A stretch of DNA of 64,000 nt from a virus: IMG/VR virus record IMGVR_UViG_3300044475_000063, positions 32,001-96,000 of that record; one strand, 5' to 3'. The notes below the pieces were generated by a model. It ran no database searches. It was not told where the DNA came from and saw nothing but the letters and a program-made list of their open reading frames with translations. Position numbers and translations under genes: made by a program. Numbering within the stretch: position 1 is the stretch's first letter; each line of letters opens with the position of its first letter. Below, piece by piece: positions 2,972 through 60,102 of this stretch.

Positions 2972-3160
2972 ATGATTAGTATCGGTCAGATGGTGCGTGT
3001 TCTGAATTCGGATAATGTGTGTCGTCTTGAATCATGGGAGCGCGATGCTATCCATATGATTCATTCTAAGTCTGTAAATGGGCTGCGGCAGAATCTGCTA
3101 GACCTCCGCGAGTGCCAACTTATCATCACTATTTTTAACAGGGTATATCAAAATGCGTAA
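2972..3160 (+). CDS. conserved hypothetical protein
   Basis: Homolog of 53398-53586. ggagg RBS. Confidence 0.55.
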   Translation: MISIGQMVRVLNSDNVCRLESWERDAIHMIHSKSVNGLRQNLLDLRECQLIITIFNRVYQNA

Positions 3161-3251
3161 ATTGAATTGGGGATTAATCATCGCGCTTCTCACTTGCGTG
3201 ATTATCTGGACTGCTTTTGGCGTGCGTATGTACAGGTACTATCATGGCTAA
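3153..3251 (+). CDS. small single-pass membrane protein (32 aa)
   Basis: MRKLNWGLIIALLTCVIIWTAF... Overlaps both neighbours. Conserved small ORF at 53579-53677. Confidence 0.4.
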   Translation: MRKLNWGLIIALLTCVIIWTAFGVRMYRYYHG

Positions 3252-4046: not shown

Positions 4047-4271
4047 GCACTGTCTGAATTGACTAGCCTATCGTCGGGAACGAAAGCAACAGGGCGATAG
4101 CGTGAATACTGGAACTGTGGCAAAGCAAGGGAAGCACCAGAATGAGGCGTCGAAGATAGCACCTCACTTGCGCAAGGCTGTCGGGTCAGCGATTCCTCAA
4201 TGGATACGTTGTGATGGGCCTTAGCTAAGTCTAGGTCCGCTCAAACCTCTTGGATAATACGAAAGATAAGA

Positions 4272-6471: not shown

Positions 6472-6701
6472 GCAAAGCGAAATTAACCGACTGGTTCCCT
6501 GCTGATGTTAAGCCGGTGCATGTGGGTGTGTATGAGGTTCTTTATGAGAATGGCTGCTTTGGTAGCCGATATCGATACTGGAATGGCGTTCGGTTTTGCT
6601 ATCAATGTATGAATTCTCAGAAAGCTTTTCAAAAAAGGAACAATCACACTGGGCTTGACGCCTTTGTATCTTGGCGCGGCATCGCTGAAAAACCAAACTA
6701 A
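6468..6701 (+). CDS. conserved hypothetical protein
   Basis: Homolog of 56800-57033 (WFPADVKPVHVG...WRG.AEKPN). Confidence 0.6.
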   Translation: MSKAKLTDWFPADVKPVHVGVYEVLYENGCFGSRYRYWNGVRFCYQCMNSQKAFQKRNNHTGLDAFVSWRGIAEKPN

Positions 6702-6713
6702 AGGAGAATCACA

Positions 6714-7088
6714 ATGTACACTTCTGGCCGACTGATATACCAAGAGGATAGTGATGTATATACGCACATACTTCGTGATGTGACGGGCAATCGCATCATA
6801 CATCAAGGTCCGCAGGATTCTCGCGGTGAGGCTGAGGCAAATGCGCGAAGGCTTGCCGCATGTTGGAACGTTTGCGATGGGCTTGAAACTGCTGACCTTG
6901 AGGTAGGTGCGACGCTTGGAGATATTTGCGCCGATAGAAACGGCCTTGTAATCAAACTAGGTAAAGCGCAAGAAAAACTAGACATGGCCCGATCTATGCT
7001 GGAAGAGGCTTTAGATACATTTGACGACAACCCAGCAGAGGGCCATGAAATTGCAGACCGTATCCGTAGCTTTTTGGAGGTTAAATGA
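6714..7088 (+). CDS. hypothetical protein (124 aa)
   Basis: aaaggag RBS. Confidence 0.55.
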   Translation: MYTSGRLIYQEDSDVYTHILRDVTGNRIIHQGPQDSRGEAEANARRLAACWNVCDGLETADLEVGATLGDICADRNGLVIKLGKAQEKLDMARSMLEEALDTFDDNPAEGHEIADRIRSFLEVK

Positions 7089-7435
7089 GCAATGCAGAAC
7101 TATTGACTCTGGCAGCTAATGCCGCAGGATTGAAAGTCTTTAGCGTTACTCATCGTGGCATGGGTGGCTACAGTGACGATACTTTGCTCGGCTTGATTAT
7201 TGCGGATAGCGTTGGAACTCTATGGAATCCGCTAGAGAATGATTCTCAGGCGCTGCGCTTGGCGGTTGATTTGGGATTGCGATTGACACTGCCTAAATAC
7301 AAAGGATTTGGCACGACTGCCGATCATCAGGCGGATGGTATTGCTGGTTGCACGGCTTTCCGAGATGACCCAATGGCGCAGACGCGAGAGGCTATTGTGC
7401 GCGCTGCCGCCGAAAAAGGAAGGGCTATGCAATGA
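7085..7435 (+). CDS. hypothetical protein (116 aa)
   Basis: ggagg RBS and ATGA overlap. Confidence 0.55.
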   Translation: MSNAELLTLAANAAGLKVFSVTHRGMGGYSDDTLLGLIIADSVGTLWNPLENDSQALRLAVDLGLRLTLPKYKGFGTTADHQADGIAGCTAFRDDPMAQTREAIVRAAAEKGRAMQ

Positions 7436-7854
7436 AGGTTAAATCTTCCCGATTAATGGGTGTTAATGATATCGACGATTTGTTCAAGGCCAAGGCGCGC
7501 TTGATGCCTGATGATGTGAGCGAGATTCAGCTTAGGGTGCTTCTGGCGCTCGATTCGGCCAAGCGCTCACGCTGCCCACCAGGCCTCGCAAACCTGCTTA
7601 TCAAGCACATGGTCATGGCTGCTGCAATCGGTAGCCAGATGCGAGACCAAAGCTTCTACAATCTGGCGCAAAGGGCCTATGAGGCGCTTTACAACGCTTG
7701 CATGCGAGATACGGTGGACCTTGATCTAACAACCGGCGAGTACAGCGTAATCAAGCGAACGATTGCGCTATACTTGAACCATCTGCCTAAAGTCGAGCGC
7801 GGCTTGTTTGAGTTTGCAAGCAATCATGCTCAGAAAGTTTTAGCGCAAGGTTAA
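7432..7854 (+). CDS. conserved hypothetical protein, last early-right gene (possible late regulator, by position only)
   Basis: Homolog of 57342-57764. Both copies precede the tRNA/packaging region. Confidence 0.6.
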   Translation: MKVKSSRLMGVNDIDDLFKAKARLMPDDVSEIQLRVLLALDSAKRSRCPPGLANLLIKHMVMAAAIGSQMRDQSFYNLAQRAYEALYNACMRDTVDLDLTTGEYSVIKRTIALYLNHLPKVERGLFEFASNHAQKVLAQG

Positions 7855-30808: not shown

Positions 30809-32220
30809 GTTTGACCTCAACAGGGCTTGAGCGACCACGCCTAGCCGAACTAAAGGCCGATCTGGATCAAAGCATTACTGATGTGCTTGGTCCGGTAAAT
30901 GTCGCGCCAGATGCAGTTCTAGGACAGATTGACGGCATCAATGCCGCTGCCTTAGATGATGTATGGGAAGCAGTTCAGGATAATTATGACAGTATGTATC
31001 CATCTAGCGCGGAAGGTGTTAGTTTGGACCGTGCTGTATCGTTCTTGGGCCTTGTGCGAATCCCTGCTGCACCTGTTGTAGTTACAGCAGCTATCTATGG
31101 CACAGAAGGGGCAGTAGTTCCTGTAAATGCGCTGGCACATGCTGACGTACAATATTTCAATACTTCTCAAGTCACGATTACTCAAGCAAGCGTGATTGAT
31201 ACTATTGTTGGTGTTGCAGCCGCATTTGATGCGGTTACTTACACGGTGACACTTAATGGTACGCCATACTCTTATTTGTCAGGCGCTGGCGCTACAAAAA
31301 CTTCTATTGCACTTGGCTTAAAAACTGCAATTGGCGCTGCATATATAGTTTCTGTAACTGACGATAAGCTGCGCATCAGCGCATTGGATGGCGAAACGCC
31401 ATTTCCTATTCTCATAACTGATAATCTGACGCTTGATAGCATCGGCTCTCCTGCTATCTTCGTTTCTGTAGTTAGTGGCGCTCGTGGTTTGCCTGTTGGT
31501 GCATTATCGAATGTAGATACTCCTGTATTCGGCTGGACTGGTATATATAACTTGCTTCCAGGCGCTGGCAGTCGAGATGTTGAGTCAGATATTGATTTGC
31601 GCCTACGTCATGCTACGGCATCTCGTGCTACTGGTTCAGCAACCGTTAAGGCAATTCGTGCGCGCTTGCTAGCAGAGGTTCCAGGGGTTACGGCTGTCTC
31701 TATCTATGAGAATCGTACCAGCAGTGTAGTTTCTTCGCGTCCACCTCATTCATTTGAAGCAGTTGTACAAGGTGGAGTAGACCAGCTTGTAGGAAACAAC
31801 ATTTGGGAAAATAAACCAGCAGGTATAGAAACTTATGGCAACGTGACAGTTAATGTCACTGATGATAATGGCGATCTGCAAGCTACTAAATTTTCGCGCC
31901 CAACCTCTAAATATCTATGGGTACGCGTGACTGTTACCGCACTTTATCCAGAAGAGGATTTGCCGTCAAATACTGAGCAAGCAATCATAGATGCTGTGTT
32001 AGCAACATCAAGCGCGCTCACTGTTGGAGAGGACGTTATTACTCAGCGCTTTATCGGACCGATTTATGCCGCAACTACGGGCATCGGAATGATTACTGTT
32101 GAAACTGCTTTGACTAATTTACCCGGCGATACTCCAACCTACACAACTGCAAACAAAGCAATCTCGTTTGCAGAATTAGCTATTGCTGCTCAAAGTCGAA
32201 TCACGGTACTTGGCCTATGA
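30805..32220 (+). CDS. baseplate J-like wedge protein
   Basis: 471 aa, by size and position. Confidence 0.6.
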   Translation: MSLTSTGLERPRLAELKADLDQSITDVLGPVNVAPDAVLGQIDGINAAALDDVWEAVQDNYDSMYPSSAEGVSLDRAVSFLGLVRIPAAPVVVTAAIYGTEGAVVPVNALAHADVQYFNTSQVTITQASVIDTIVGVAAAFDAVTYTVTLNGTPYSYLSGAGATKTSIALGLKTAIGAAYIVSVTDDKLRISALDGETPFPILITDNLTLDSIGSPAIFVSVVSGARGLPVGALSNVDTPVFGWTGIYNLLPGAGSRDVESDIDLRLRHATASRATGSATVKAIRARLLAEVPGVTAVSIYENRTSSVVSSRPPHSFEAVVQGGVDQLVGNNIWENKPAGIETYGNVTVNVTDDNGDLQATKFSRPTSKYLWVRVTVTALYPEEDLPSNTEQAIIDAVLATSSALTVGEDVITQRFIGPIYAATTGIGMITVETALTNLPGDTPTYTTANKAISFAELAIAAQSRITVLGL

Positions 32221-47104: not shown

Positions 47105-47685
47105 TCTCCGTGATGGGTAGTGTAAGGAGGGGATTTTCACCCCATTCCTTTTTAAGCGTGGTCGCTGTATGCAATAACTCTGGCGGGACGTTGTTTATCC
47201 TGAGTCTACTCAGAACCCGTCTTTGCATCTTCGATTCTGACCATATCGACCATGGGCATGTGCGCGTTCATGCTAGCGTGTGGTGGCCGGTGCTGATATC
47301 CGGCATTGGGCGTCTTATCCACGTTTCCCCATCCTTACTACCCAGCGTTTGGAACCCTGGTTGACAAGTAAGCGCATCAGCTTGCGCATTCACCACATCG
47401 AAACGGGCTAGGGCTTGATACCTAGCTAATCGTATGTCGGTCATACGACTACCAACCAGTTGCGGAACCCCTTTTTAACGAGTCGGTTAAGCCTCTTTTG
47501 TCGCCTTCAGGTTGGTTAAGCACCCTAAGCTCCGTTTCCGCCGACCTTGCTTAGCACGTCCTTCCGTGCTGCCGTTTCGATGTGGTTCCTAGCACTTACG
47601 CGGCTAGGTTACGATACTAGGAATTAATCCCTTGTCCTAGTAGCTTGCTAGATTCTTTCGCCGTTCTTGGCTCTAGCGGGCCAAA
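47105..47685 (-). ncRNA. large structured RNA candidate R (unknown class), paralog of 59461-59974
   Basis: ~580 nt with no credible ORF. 14-bp long-range helix 47572-47585/47393-47406. Blocks at 47555-47573, 47404-47424 and 47280-47296 are identical to blocks in the plus-strand copy. Confidence 0.5.
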
Positions 47686-58234: not shown

Positions 58235-58376
58235 AATTAAGTGTTGTATTTTTGCACTAGCGTTGACTTTGAATAATGGTTAAGGCATCATTACTACATC
58301 GAGCACCACTTTCCAGATAGGACTGGGTTCAAGCAACTTCCGCGCTGGCGAAGTGAAAGGCCAGCAAAAGATCAAA

Positions 58377-58452
58377 GCGCCGTTGGCAGACAGGATGATG
58401 CACCGGAATTCTAGTCCGACGTAAGGGAGTTCGAATCTCTCACGGCGCGCCA
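58377..58452 (+). tRNA. tRNA-Arg (anticodon UCU)
   Basis: 76 nt hand fold: perfect 7-bp acceptor, loop ATTCTAG (U33, UCU, A37), T-loop TTCGAAT, encoded CCA. C27-A43 and G13-A22 mismatches. Confidence 0.8.
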
Positions 58453-58460
58453 GTTTCAAA

Positions 58461-58534
58461 GCGGGTATAGCTGATTGGCACAGCAGAAGCCTTCCAAGCT
58501 TACGACTCGGGTTCGATTCCCGATATCCGCTCCA
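58461..58534 (+). tRNA. tRNA-Gly (anticodon UCC)
   Basis: 74 nt hand fold: acceptor GCGGGTA/TATCCGC, D-stem GCTG/CAGC, loop CTTCCAA, T-arm TCGGG-TTCGATT-CCCGA, CCA. Confidence 0.8.
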
Positions 58535-58680: not shown

Positions 58681-58909
58681 GGGCCTGTGGCTGAGAGGAA
58701 AAGCACTCCTAATAATGGAAGGAGACAGGTAAAACTGATTTTCAAGTCGAAAGTTTTGCATGGTACACGGTTTGCAGAAGCACCTATAGCGGCCTGATTC
58801 AGGTGGCGGTTAAACAGCAAGGGAAGCGCGTTTCCAAGCTATGCAAAAGCTAGTAGTAATGCACTAGTACATGAAAATTACATGGGTTCAATTCCCATCA
58901 GGTCCACCA
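58681..58909 (+). ncRNA. tRNA-like RNA with ~150-nt insertion at the variable-arm position
   Basis: Acceptor GGGCCTG/CAGGTCC + A + CCA, D-arm GCT-GAGAGGAAA-AGC, stem CTCCT/AGGAG with 9-nt loop AATAATGGA, T-arm ATGGG-TTCAATT-CCCAT. 229 nt in total. Confidence 0.45.
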
Positions 58910-59159: not shown

Positions 59160-59428
59160 GGGCCGATACCGCAGGGGCGCTCGGGCCAATAAACGCCCCA
59201 GCATAAGCGCCGTCCTCCTTTCCCCAGCTATCGCTAGTGGGCGCAACAAGTAATTAGGCGTGATTATGCAGAGCCAAGTTAAGGGCGCATAGCGTGGAAG
59301 CCGCTAGTAGTTTTGTCTCGCAAGAGACGCCACAAGAAAGCCGATTTGTGAGATACGTGGTATATCAGCGCCCTCATAAGATGAAGTCCCTTGGTTCGAT
59401 TCCGAGGACAAGTCGGCCTCCTTGTGGC
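59160..59428 (+). ncRNA. structured RNA module M2 (copy B) with a tRNA-sized minihelix at its 3' end
   Basis: 5' part conserved with 8719-8890. Helix 59329-59344/59413-59428 encloses 59340-59417, which has a 10-bp acceptor-like stem stacked on T-arm CCTTGG-TTCGATT-CCGAGG. Confidence 0.45.
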
Positions 59429-59460: not shown

Positions 59461-59974
59461 GCATAATTCAATTGACGAATTGAATGTATGCCGAATGGTT
59501 CACGAAACGAGCCATTACATATCATCGGCAGCACGGAAGGACGTGGGTAAGCGCTGCAAATAGTCGGCAGAGAGATTGCGGCAATCCTAGGTGATTTGCT
59601 CTCATCATGCCAAGTTAGGTATCAAGCCCTAGCCCGATGATCTGTAATAAAGATTGGATGATGCCGGTCGTTACACGCCTGACTCTCGTTATAGAGTCAC
59701 TACACGCATGCTGATTGATAGGGATGGATACGTAGAACTGGACGCAGGGGCTATCCATAGAGTCTAGGCCTTGACCTAGAGCGCAAACTCCCCTAACTAC
59801 GATATTAGTCAGCAGTCGTGTGGTGCAATGCGGAGGCTGATCCGCGAAGCGTTCTATGAGTCCGATTGATTACCGGGATACTCGCAGGTTGGCTAGGCTT
59901 CGCGGGCCTAAACTTTAGCGCAGAATAATGCCAACAAAGCCAGAGTTCAGCACTGGCCACCACTTCAGTTTCAT
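59461..59974 (+). ncRNA. large structured RNA candidate P (unknown class), paralog of 47105-47685
   Basis: Helix 59521-59528/59634-59641. Blocks at 59527-59545, 59616-59636 and 59947-59963 are identical to blocks in the minus-strand copy. No ORF. Confidence 0.5.
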
Positions 59975-60052
59975 GCCAAGAGTAGCTCAACGGTTAGAGC
60001 GACGGATTAATAACCCGGATTATGCTGGTTCGATTCCAGCCTCGCGGCACCA
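59975..60052 (+). pseudogene. degenerate tRNA-like element ending in CCA
   Basis: D-arm GCTC-AACGGTTA-GAGC and T-arm GCTGG-TTCGATT-CCAGC are good. The acceptor has 2 mismatches and the anticodon stem has only 3 bp (loop TTAATAA). Confidence 0.4.
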
Positions 60053-60074
60053 GTTCTTTCCCGCAGCACCTTTC

Positions 60075-60102
60075 GCCCTGAATCCTATCAGGGCGTTTTT
60101 TT
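60075..60102 (+). terminator. rho-independent terminator closing the RNA island
   Basis: GCCCTGA-ATCCTA-TCAGGGC followed by GTTTTTTT. Confidence 0.8.

Follow-up and report, generated by a model that had tools for sequence, protein, structure and literature searches.

Does the sequence of about 0.5 kb that occurs twice, on opposite strands, in one phage genome represent a single structured RNA, and what could such an RNA do? The stretch of DNA analysed (the window) comprises 64,000 nt, positions 32,001 to 96,000 of the IMG/VR virus record IMGVR_UViG_3300044475_000063; copy A of the sequence lies on the plus strand at 59461-59974 and copy B on the minus strand at 47105-47685. It is concluded with high confidence that in each copy two homologous structured-RNA modules, termed type 1 and type 2, stand in tandem and are transcribed with the flanking genes. 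An earlier note on this DNA had described one 0.5-kb element with a single closing helix built on three shared blocks; the blocks are colinear in the two copies as described, with block 1 (59527-59545, reverse complement of 47555-47573) and block 2 (59616-59636, reverse complement of 47404-47424) identical and block 3 (59947-59963, reverse complement of 47280-47296) carrying a single T/C difference, and they are the sole notable blastn matches of each copy against the whole window (E 6e-5, 2e-4 and 0.03). A fourth common block had been overlooked, GUGGUG(C)AAUGCG-N-A-RGCUGA-U-N-CGC at 59820-59845 and 47396-47372. The single element does not hold, because blocks 1 and 2 define the type 1 module and block 3 sits in a separately closed type 2 module; the 0.5 kb is therefore composite.

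Both types share one order of parts. A helix P1 leads through a linker of 2-3 nt to H1, a hairpin of 5 bp whose 6-nt loop is conserved; a variable insert (28-270 nt) and then an invariant A come next. The module ends with H2, likewise a 5-bp hairpin, its conserved loop measuring 8-9 nt, and with the 3' strand of P1 (P1'), which follows H2 without a linker. The stem of H2 is mostly GCCGG...CCGGC, and the H2 hairpins of types 1 and 2 are plainly homologous (A-GCCGG-[..AUCA..]-CCGGC). The loops of type 1 are GANGGA in H1 and (U/A)N-UCRA-NY in H2; those of type 2 are GGCUGA and AGA-UCAGC-A, between which a 5-bp kissing helix is possible. The type 2 plan can be written in full as NNNN-GGUG / AAU / GCGCA-GGCUGA-UGCGC / insert / A / GCCGG-AGAUCAGCA-CCGGC / CACC-NNNN. 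Type 1 modules measure approximately 120-190 nt and type 2 modules approximately 120-150 nt; most instances across the families are single modules of about 100-180 nt. The four modules of the window, each a seed member of its family model (R1 for type 1, R2 for type 2), are as follows.

59514..59648, plus strand: type 1 of copy A; R1 64.1 bits, E 3.5e-12; P1 59514-59528 with 59634-59648, linker CA 59529-59530, H1 59531-59546 with loop GAAGGA, insert 59547-59612, invariant A 59613, H2 59614-59633 with loop UAUCAAGC.

59818..59965, plus strand: type 2 of copy A; R2 66.1 bits, E 3.9e-14; P1 GUGGUG 59820-59825 with CACCAC 59958-59963, H1 59830-59845 with loop GGCUGA, H2 59939-59957 with loop AGUUCAGCA.

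47393..47585, minus strand: type 1 of copy B; R1 59.5 bits, E 3.7e-11; P1 47585-47572 with 47406-47393, H1 47569-47554 with loop GAAGGA, a 131-nt insert, A 47427, H2 47426-47407 with loop UAUCAAGC.

47278..47398, minus strand: type 2 of copy B; R2 79.2 bits, E 2.6e-17; P1 47398-47391 with 47285-47279, H1 47387-47372 with loop AGCUGA, H2 47304-47286 with loop AUAUCAGCA.

The long-range helix that was said to differ in sequence between the copies is present in both and proves longer than first stated: in copy A AUUACAUAUCAUCGG (59514-59528) pairs with CCGAUGAUCUGUAAU (59634-59648) over 15 bp with one mismatch, and in copy B CCACAUCGAAACGG (47585-47572) pairs with CCGUUUCGAUGUGG (47406-47393) over 14 bp. 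The compensatory change in the block-3 hairpin is likewise found (GCCAG/CUGGC versus GCCGG/CCGGC), and the two type 2 loops of copy A are mutually complementary (GCUGA/UCAGC). P1, H1 and H2 of the copy A type 1 module all appear in the minimum free energy (MFE) fold, as does every helix of the copy B type 1 module; thermodynamically these folds have weak support in copy A (z = -0.64) and moderate support in copy B (z = -2.87). Since MFE stability alone is unimpressive, the case for structure is a comparative one. It bears out the proposal of a conserved RNA fold rather than a coding sequence or a plain DNA repeat, as compensatory changes preserve the helices in hundreds of homologues; the orientation of the modules is always that of the flanking genes and tRNAs. 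The description of both stretches as free of open reading frames (ORFs) stands only in part: mechanical ORFs of 43-76 aa overlap both, although none has evidence of coding.

The type 1 family was reached from two anchors. The block-1 17-mer CAGCACGGAAGGACGTG occurs in 100 IMG/VR contigs, approximately 90% of which have a hairpin NNGG-UAUCAAGC-CCNN with a covarying stem 50-270 nt downstream; 3' of this hairpin the sequence is exactly complementary to the 7-17 nt just 5' of the 17-mer, and R1 matches more than 95 of the 100 contigs at full length. The independent anchor, the H2 19-mer GCCGGTATCAAGCCCGGCC, occurs in at least 120 further IMG/VR contigs, and R1 matches each of the 117 H2-anchored loci searched (117/117). 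These loci keep the H1 loop GA(A/U)GGA on a stem that covaries (GCGUG/CACGC, GCACG/CGUGC, GCGCU/AGCGC, GUGUG/CACAC). In the H2-anchored alignment P1 is paired in 97.8% of cases, with both sides changed in six of its seven pairs, and H1 in 98.3%, with both sides changed in all five; none of 500 shuffles reaches the observed values, and slid controls are 23-40% paired. Three further probes were set aside: a loop-insert pseudoknot in type 1 is not enriched over shuffled inserts; the 15-mer GTCACTACACGCATG gives mostly chance matches, with about five true relatives; and the 56 matches of the 17-mer in bacterial genomes are close to chance for 596 Gb, about 11 being real by R1. These R1-strong genomes (approximately 11 of the 56) belong to Burkholderiales, Undibacterium, Comamonas, Nitrosomonas, Rhodanobacter, Sphingomonas, Acetobacteraceae and delta-proteobacterial metagenome-assembled genomes. 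Among cultured phages type 1 occurs, at unannotated sites, in Caulobacter DMCA, Komagataeibacter phiKX1/2, Acidovorax AP1, the N4-like Alcaligenes QDWS595, Iodobacter PhiPLPE and cyanophage Pan3. Outward-pointing type 1 pairs with a 270-nt spacer are seen at two loci, L274 (Sphingomonas sp. Leaf32; 7100-7248 on the minus and 7518-7678 on the plus strand) and L061 (6217-6365 minus, 6635-6795 plus); they look as if each module follows one of two divergent promoters. PHROG annotation of the ORFs around the L061 pair returned no matches.

The type 2 family is similarly widespread. Its pattern GGTGAATGCGNNNNCTGATNCGC is found in at least 120 IMG/VR contigs; the outer four pairs of P1 covary, and the kissing helix (GCUGA with UCAGC) is paired in 98.9% of cases, with one double change (ACUGA/UCAGU) and seven G-U pairs. 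R2 matches the window exactly twice, at 59818-59965 (plus) and 47278-47398 (minus). Type 2 is carried by 1600 of 5426 complete E. coli genomes (about 30%), and also by Stx2 and Stx2c phages, mEp460, many Klebsiella and Escherichia T1-like phages, and N4-like phages; irrespective of polymerase and lifestyle, the modules are found in temperate lambdoid phages, in phage P1, and in T1-like and N4-like virulent phages. In phage P1 the interval from tRNA-Thr to tciA holds three type 2 copies in tandem, right after tRNA-Asn/tRNA-Thr. At the type 2 sites in the records listed there is no RNA feature, and any feature under the match is a small coding sequence; the E. coli type 2 locus has only chance-level matches to Rfam at E<=10. 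In the phage P1 records OP279344 (L424, 2502-3314) and JL22 (L421, 2515-3326), a 'plp' ORF and a small hypothetical ORF overlie three type 2 modules, and the plp lipoprotein ORF is annotated on the opposite strand in JL22 and RCS47; both ORF calls over these modules may be spurious. In one IMG/VR instance of type 2 (TGTTGGTGAATGCGCAGGCTGATGCGCTTAAAACTGTAGCTCAGTTGGTAGAGC...) the insert itself consists of a D-arm and a T-arm of canonical tRNA type, with no anticodon arm.

Known RNA families do not account for the modules. Rfam 15 (4227 models) was scanned against the window at the gathering threshold and against both copies also at E<=10; only tRNAs and chance-level matches were returned and the modules were unmatched. 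By eye, the note could not match the sequence to tmRNA, RNase P, group I/II introns or common riboswitches; these scans of the copies gave no match to those, nor to C4/CI antisense RNAs, known ribozymes or other riboswitches. In blastn against GenBank phages copy B matched nothing, and the copy A region matched only tRNAs and an unrelated segment of phage RSP15. The suggested link to the large GOLLD/ROOL RNAs is lost as membership, there being no Rfam match even at E<=10, and survives as analogy, as the modules are phage-borne and tRNA-adjacent.

The two copies differ in how the modules are joined. In copy B type 2 follows directly on type 1, and the last 6 nt of the type 1 P1' are the start of the type 2 P1; copy A has the order type 1, 170-nt spacer module, type 2. 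The spacer is the following feature.

59649..59817, plus strand: 'module X', with a hairpin GACUCU-CGUUAU-AGAGUC (59681-59698) and then ACUACACGCAUG (59699-59710), leading into type 2.

The hairpin of module X, with a covarying stem, and ACUACACGCAUG recur upstream of type 2 at L261 (an Undibacterium prophage), L281, L284, L288 and L294. Module X was tried as a degenerate type 2 and rejected, as R2 finds no match even with filters off. Type 1 and type 2 together are a minority layout, with six type 2 matches in 100 type 1 loci, a count obtained with the narrowly trained R2; in most other phages either module stands alone. The arrangement of copy B is shared by its close relative L004; at L306 and L343 (IMG/VR), type 1-like H2 loop variants (GGTATTAAGCC and GGTATCAATCC) lie directly upstream of type 2, as in copy B, and the fused layout therefore recurs in other lineages. 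Tandem module arrays occur in phage P1 and at L039, L048, L060 and L134.

Within the window, copy B belongs to a leftward early operon, 3' of two small ORFs and 5' of erf and an exonuclease gene; it lies approximately 0.7-0.9 kb into the operon, whose divergent point with a helix-turn-helix regulator is at about 48.25 kb. Copy A is part of a 1.8-kb ORF-poor RNA cluster with the small and large terminase and portal genes downstream. The cluster opens with a promoter-like site, after which come tRNA-Arg and tRNA-Gly, then a tRNA-derived RNA that carries a 150-nt insert, and then a degenerate tRNA. Type 1, the spacer and type 2 follow in that order, and tRNA-Ile and a strong terminator end the series; the elements around copy A are listed below.

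58263..58291, plus strand: sigma-70-like promoter candidate, TTGACT-17-CATCAT, from a consensus scan whose matches are no more numerous than in shuffled sequence; weak.

58377-58452 and 58461-58534, plus strand: tRNA-Arg(TCT) and tRNA-Gly(TCC), found by Rfam and ARAGORN; they share cluster and strand with copy A.

58681..58909, plus strand: third tRNA-derived RNA, with a conserved insert of approximately 150 nt between D- and T-arms, read from the sequence.

59975..60052, plus strand: tRNA called Ile, with the unusual anticodon AAT, by ARAGORN; Rfam tRNA 47.2 bits; two acceptor-stem mismatches.

60074..60102, plus strand: strong intrinsic-terminator-like hairpin, 8 bp (6 G-C) plus U7, closing the cluster before the probable small terminase gene (60177).

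The tRNA-Ile begins 10-12 nt past the type 2 module of copy A. The degenerate tRNA-like sequence at 59340-59418 (plus) combines an acceptor-like helix of 10 bp (GCCGAUUUGU/ACAAGUCGGC) with a canonical T-arm (CUUGG-UUCGAUU-CCGAG); it reaches only 16.6 bits with the Rfam tRNA model and is not called by ARAGORN. On the minus strand at 47120-47150, approximately 20 nt upstream of the erf start codon, a hairpin GGGGUGAAAAUCCCC is preceded by AAAAAGGAAU; it is kept with stem changes in the related contigs L004 and L077 and may be a translational operator or a weak terminator. An Rfam Betaproteobacteria-1 RNA motif at 4066-4186 (plus; 57.2 bits versus a gathering score of 49.4) suggests a betaproteobacterial host. 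The two settings of the modules in the window, upstream of recombination genes and upstream of terminase, recur across loci; no conserved protein partner was found, as no ORF cluster occurred in more than eight loci in an all-against-all comparison within 4 kb on either side of 100 loci.

The linkage of the modules to tRNA genes is close. A tRNA gene lies within 2 kb of 35 of the 160 type 1 and eight of the 56 type 2 instances, and all 93 tRNAs near modules (74 near type 1, 19 near type 2) are on the strand of the module; the smallest gaps measure 2-9 nt on the upstream side and 4-20 nt on the downstream side. At L307, L349, L401 and L301 a tRNA lies within 6-20 nt past type 2, resembling copy A, and the type 1 module of Komagataeibacter phage phiKX1 lies 119 nt past tRNA-Met. 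The modules also resemble tRNA in build. The length of P1 has its mode at 8 bp and is 7-9 bp in 109 of 160 instances, in keeping with the 7-bp acceptor of tRNA; this acceptor-like helix joins a 5-bp T-like arm, G-C closed, with no linker, the hairpin in the D position has GG, and the T-like loop has UCRA. In standard tRNA numbering, alignments of type 1 show a 2-nt C-R linker, an invariant G10-C25 that opens H1, and invariant G18G19; the loop-closing G53-C61 of H2 is G-C in 53 of 54 sequences, its loop carries UCRA, and zero nucleotides separate H2 from P1', as in tRNA. The trinucleotide ACC follows P1' in approximately 9% of instances versus approximately 1.6% expected. The GG/UC elbow positions are invariant and hence give no covariation signal.

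A possible link between true tRNAs and the modules is the third RNA of the copy A cluster (58681-58909), whose acceptor is GGGCCUG/CAGGUCC (G3:U70), its T-arm AUGGG-UUCAAUU-CCCAU and its 3' end ACCA, with GAGAGGAAA as the loop of a D-like hairpin. A homologue in Ralstonia phage RSP15 (L001, approximately 2990-3215) has 79% column identity, and its acceptor and T stems covary; neither RNA is called by ARAGORN or Rfam, and the RSP15 copy is unannotated. This RNA and its homologue are the intermediate form, combining canonical D and T loops, G3:U70 and ACCA with a large conserved insert.

The tRNA likeness of the modules, together with the intermediate, leads to tRNA-derived mimics, excised and stabilised, as the favoured reading: the modules are predicted from sequence to be derived from tRNA genes and processed by tRNA-maturation enzymes, a function put forward tentatively and at less than even probability. 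P1 stacked on H2 would mimic the acceptor/T-arm stack (7-9 bp plus 5 bp), H1 would occupy the place of the D-arm, and contact between the H1 and H2 loops would form the 'elbow', through G18G19 with U55C56 in type 1 and through Watson-Crick kissing in type 2; the free-form insert would stand for the anticodon and variable arms. Because they look like tRNA from the acceptor and elbow side, the modules would be excised from polycistronic phage transcripts by the tRNA-maturation machinery, the 5' cut being made by RNase P and the 3' cut by an RNase E/Z-type activity or by the RNase P cut of the neighbouring tRNA. The products would be stable L-shaped RNAs with a lineage-specific cargo domain, and the excision would punctuate operons at the early/recombination boundary (copy B) and at the boundary between RNA cluster and late genes (copy A).

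Precedents for tRNA-like structures handled by RNase P are the tRNA-like domain of tmRNA, bacterial YrlA, mascRNA, the C4 RNAs of phages P1/P7 and the CI RNA of P4. Like these tRNA-type RNAs, the modules are phage-encoded, lie in polycistronic transcripts and are co-oriented and spaced like real tRNAs; unlike tRNA, they have an insert in place of the anticodon arm, an 8-9-nt T-like loop and usually no CCA, and type 2 swaps the D/T contact for a 5-bp kissing helix. Unlike tRNA, tmRNA and C4, they are undetected by Rfam models, and ARAGORN mostly rejects them even after grafting of an anticodon arm. In the engineered 'tRNA scaffold', a cargo RNA replaces the anticodon arm between the D- and T-arms, and the chimera is processed and stabilised like a tRNA; the modules likewise have an insert between D- and T-like arms, but are natural and have non-canonical conserved loops.

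Several points weigh against the modules as tRNA mimics. The Rfam tRNA model RF00005 does not match them at E<=10, ARAGORN makes no call, and chimeras grafted with an anticodon arm are called by ARAGORN in eight of 159 cases, fewer than loop-shuffled controls (22 of 159). The H2 loop has 8-9 nt rather than 7, H1 combines a 5-bp stem with a 6-nt loop, the anticodon arm is absent (with 28-270 nt of insert instead), and an encoded CCA is missing in more than 90% of instances. The lengths of P1 have a second mode near 16 bp, and this class conflicts with the 12-bp ruler of RNase P. The loops and the type 2 stem sequences are near-invariant, which argues for a specific partner rather than mere mimicry of shape. 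Furthermore, the pattern scanner and the covariance model alignments were partly selected for or fitted to structure, which bears on the covariation.

A broader proposal goes beyond a passive processing signal: types 1 and 2 and the 58681-58909 intermediate would form a hitherto unrecognised superfamily of tRNA-derived phage RNA with an autonomous activity, either protein-independent antitermination or self-processing as a new ribozyme. This is considered possible but doubtful; in its antitermination form, if true, the RNA would be used from Burkholderiales phages to phage P1 and the Stx phages.

Antitermination in its own right is the strongest rival to tRNA-like processing, and is still judged unlikely. 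Here each module would act in cis as a processive antitermination RNA, either put-like or of the nut type with Nus factors. While nascent it would bind the transcribing polymerase, so that downstream terminators are read through; delayed-early (recombination) and late (terminase/structural) genes would thereby be turned on. The nut site of lambda consists of boxA and a small boxB and needs the N protein. The positions of the modules suit such a role, as copy B precedes erf and the exonuclease gene in the early operon, copy A precedes the strong terminator before terminase, and the same two contexts recur among the IMG/VR loci; as with put and nut, there are two copies per genome in opposed operons, placed past early promoters and ahead of delayed genes or terminators. 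The type 2 module of E. coli prophage CE10, of mEp460 and of Stx2a_WGPS2 occupies the gap of approximately 720 nt that separates the cI-like repressor gene from the first early-left gene, and in the CE10 leader it is followed by two terminator-like hairpins; in enterobacterial prophages type 2 recalls put and nut by its place within the leader of PL, where it is preceded by a boxA-like motif and followed by terminators. A terminator stands within 150 nt of type 2 in 11 of 43 loci versus 1-5 of 43 control windows, and 24 of 109 type 2 loci (22%) have a boxA-like (C/U)GCUCUU at a fixed distance of 15-16 nt on the upstream side of the module, versus a background of 0.55%. The divergent type 1 pairs 270 nt apart (L061, L274), placed as if just past divergent promoters, also accord with antitermination.

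These signals do not extend to type 1, whose terminators are at background (4 of 141) and which has a boxA nearby in two of 156 cases; neither window copy has a boxA near it, and the loci that do bear one may come from one enterobacterial lineage and hence be non-independent. Unlike put and nut, the modules also occur in virulent phages (N4-like and T1-like), in tandem arrays and abutting tRNAs; the tandem triplicates of phage P1 and direct tRNA abutment are unexpected of a put-like site, and in N4 itself the region corresponding to the module-bearing region of the N4-like phages is transcribed by phage-encoded polymerases. The architecture differs as well: HK022 put RNA has approximately 70 nt and two stem-loops (PMC9378689), and this described architecture sets it apart from the modules, which are closed multi-helix units of 100-300 nt with an insert.

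That the modules are a new class of self-cleaving ribozyme, processing polycistronic or tRNA-containing phage transcripts, is improbable. HDV-like 'theta' ribozymes that adjoin phage tRNAs offer a precedent, and the modules have a compact multi-helix junction with few near-invariant loop and linker nucleotides, tolerate a variable peripheral insert, lack a protein partner, are scattered over unrelated phages, and show tandem copies and a tRNA spacing of 2-20 nt; however, no Rfam ribozyme model resembles them, and the conserved nucleotides lie in hairpin loops that apparently contact each other, with no obvious scissile junction around them. Of similarly low probability is a building block of a larger GOLLD/ROOL-like assembly, in which type 2 loops would pair between molecules or tandem copies to form multimers. 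The GCUGA/UCAGC pairing could form either within or between molecules, phage P1 and the four loci named above have tandem arrays, in some lineages type 2 makes up the 3' portion of a longer leader that is conserved (with module X), and the association with phages and tRNAs is like that of GOLLD and ROOL, both large phage-associated RNAs (PMC12286853), as are the structured build with variable insertions and the lack of a protein partner. Against this, the modules are unmatched by the GOLLD and ROOL models of Rfam, are 3-6 times smaller (conserved units of 100-190 nt versus approximately 500-800 nt) and mostly single, at about 100-180 nt; their hosts are Proteobacteria and cyanobacteria, their plan is a simple closed junction with two interacting hairpins, and the type 1 loops are complementary at GG/UC only.

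A cis-regulatory leader of the downstream gene, whether riboswitch or translational operator, is quite improbable. Some type 1 modules do end 10-30 nt before a Shine-Dalgarno sequence and start codon (L034, L043, L051, L062), and the H1 loop GAAGGA resembles a Shine-Dalgarno sequence; yet the third position of this loop can be A, U, C or G, which would break anti-Shine-Dalgarno pairing, the downstream genes are unrelated, many instances precede tRNAs or further RNA modules rather than ORFs, and no expression platform with alternative pairing was seen. A reading without RNA function, as tRNA pseudogenes in decay or as a site acting at the DNA level (attP core, origin or pac), would suit the tRNA-like dimensions and the siting in tRNA clusters, but is highly improbable given that every stem shows compensatory changes with G-U pairs tolerated, that non-tRNA loops are strictly kept in phages of alpha-, beta-, gamma- and delta-proteobacteria as well as in a cyanophage, and given an orientation that always equals that of transcription (all 93 neighbouring tRNAs).

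A phage-encoded tRNA-like structured RNA is of a known kind; the two families, their shared plan and their abundance appear undescribed. The novelty rests on the lack of an Rfam model and of any RNA annotation in the phage and E. coli records examined, and no description was found in the literature on conserved RNA strings, put/HK639, tRNA-like phage motifs, phage P1 and GOLLD/ROOL, although papers outside the searched literature could hold one. Each family comprises well over 100 IMG/VR contigs with strong covariation. If confirmed, two abundant structured-RNA families would be added to phage biology that have been overlooked even in textbook systems, namely phage P1 and, with one type 2 module in the leader of the early-left operon, the Stx2-converting phages and mEp460. 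For annotation, R1 and R2 would clear hundreds of spurious 'hypothetical protein' calls, such as plp of phage P1 and the small ORFs of mEp460 that overlie the RNA. If confirmed, the modules would also be a natural counterpart of the engineered tRNA scaffold, with a tractable test bed in phage P1 or lambdoid lysogens of E. coli K-12; in phages without a recognisable N or Q, they may be the missing control element at the early/delayed and early/late boundaries.

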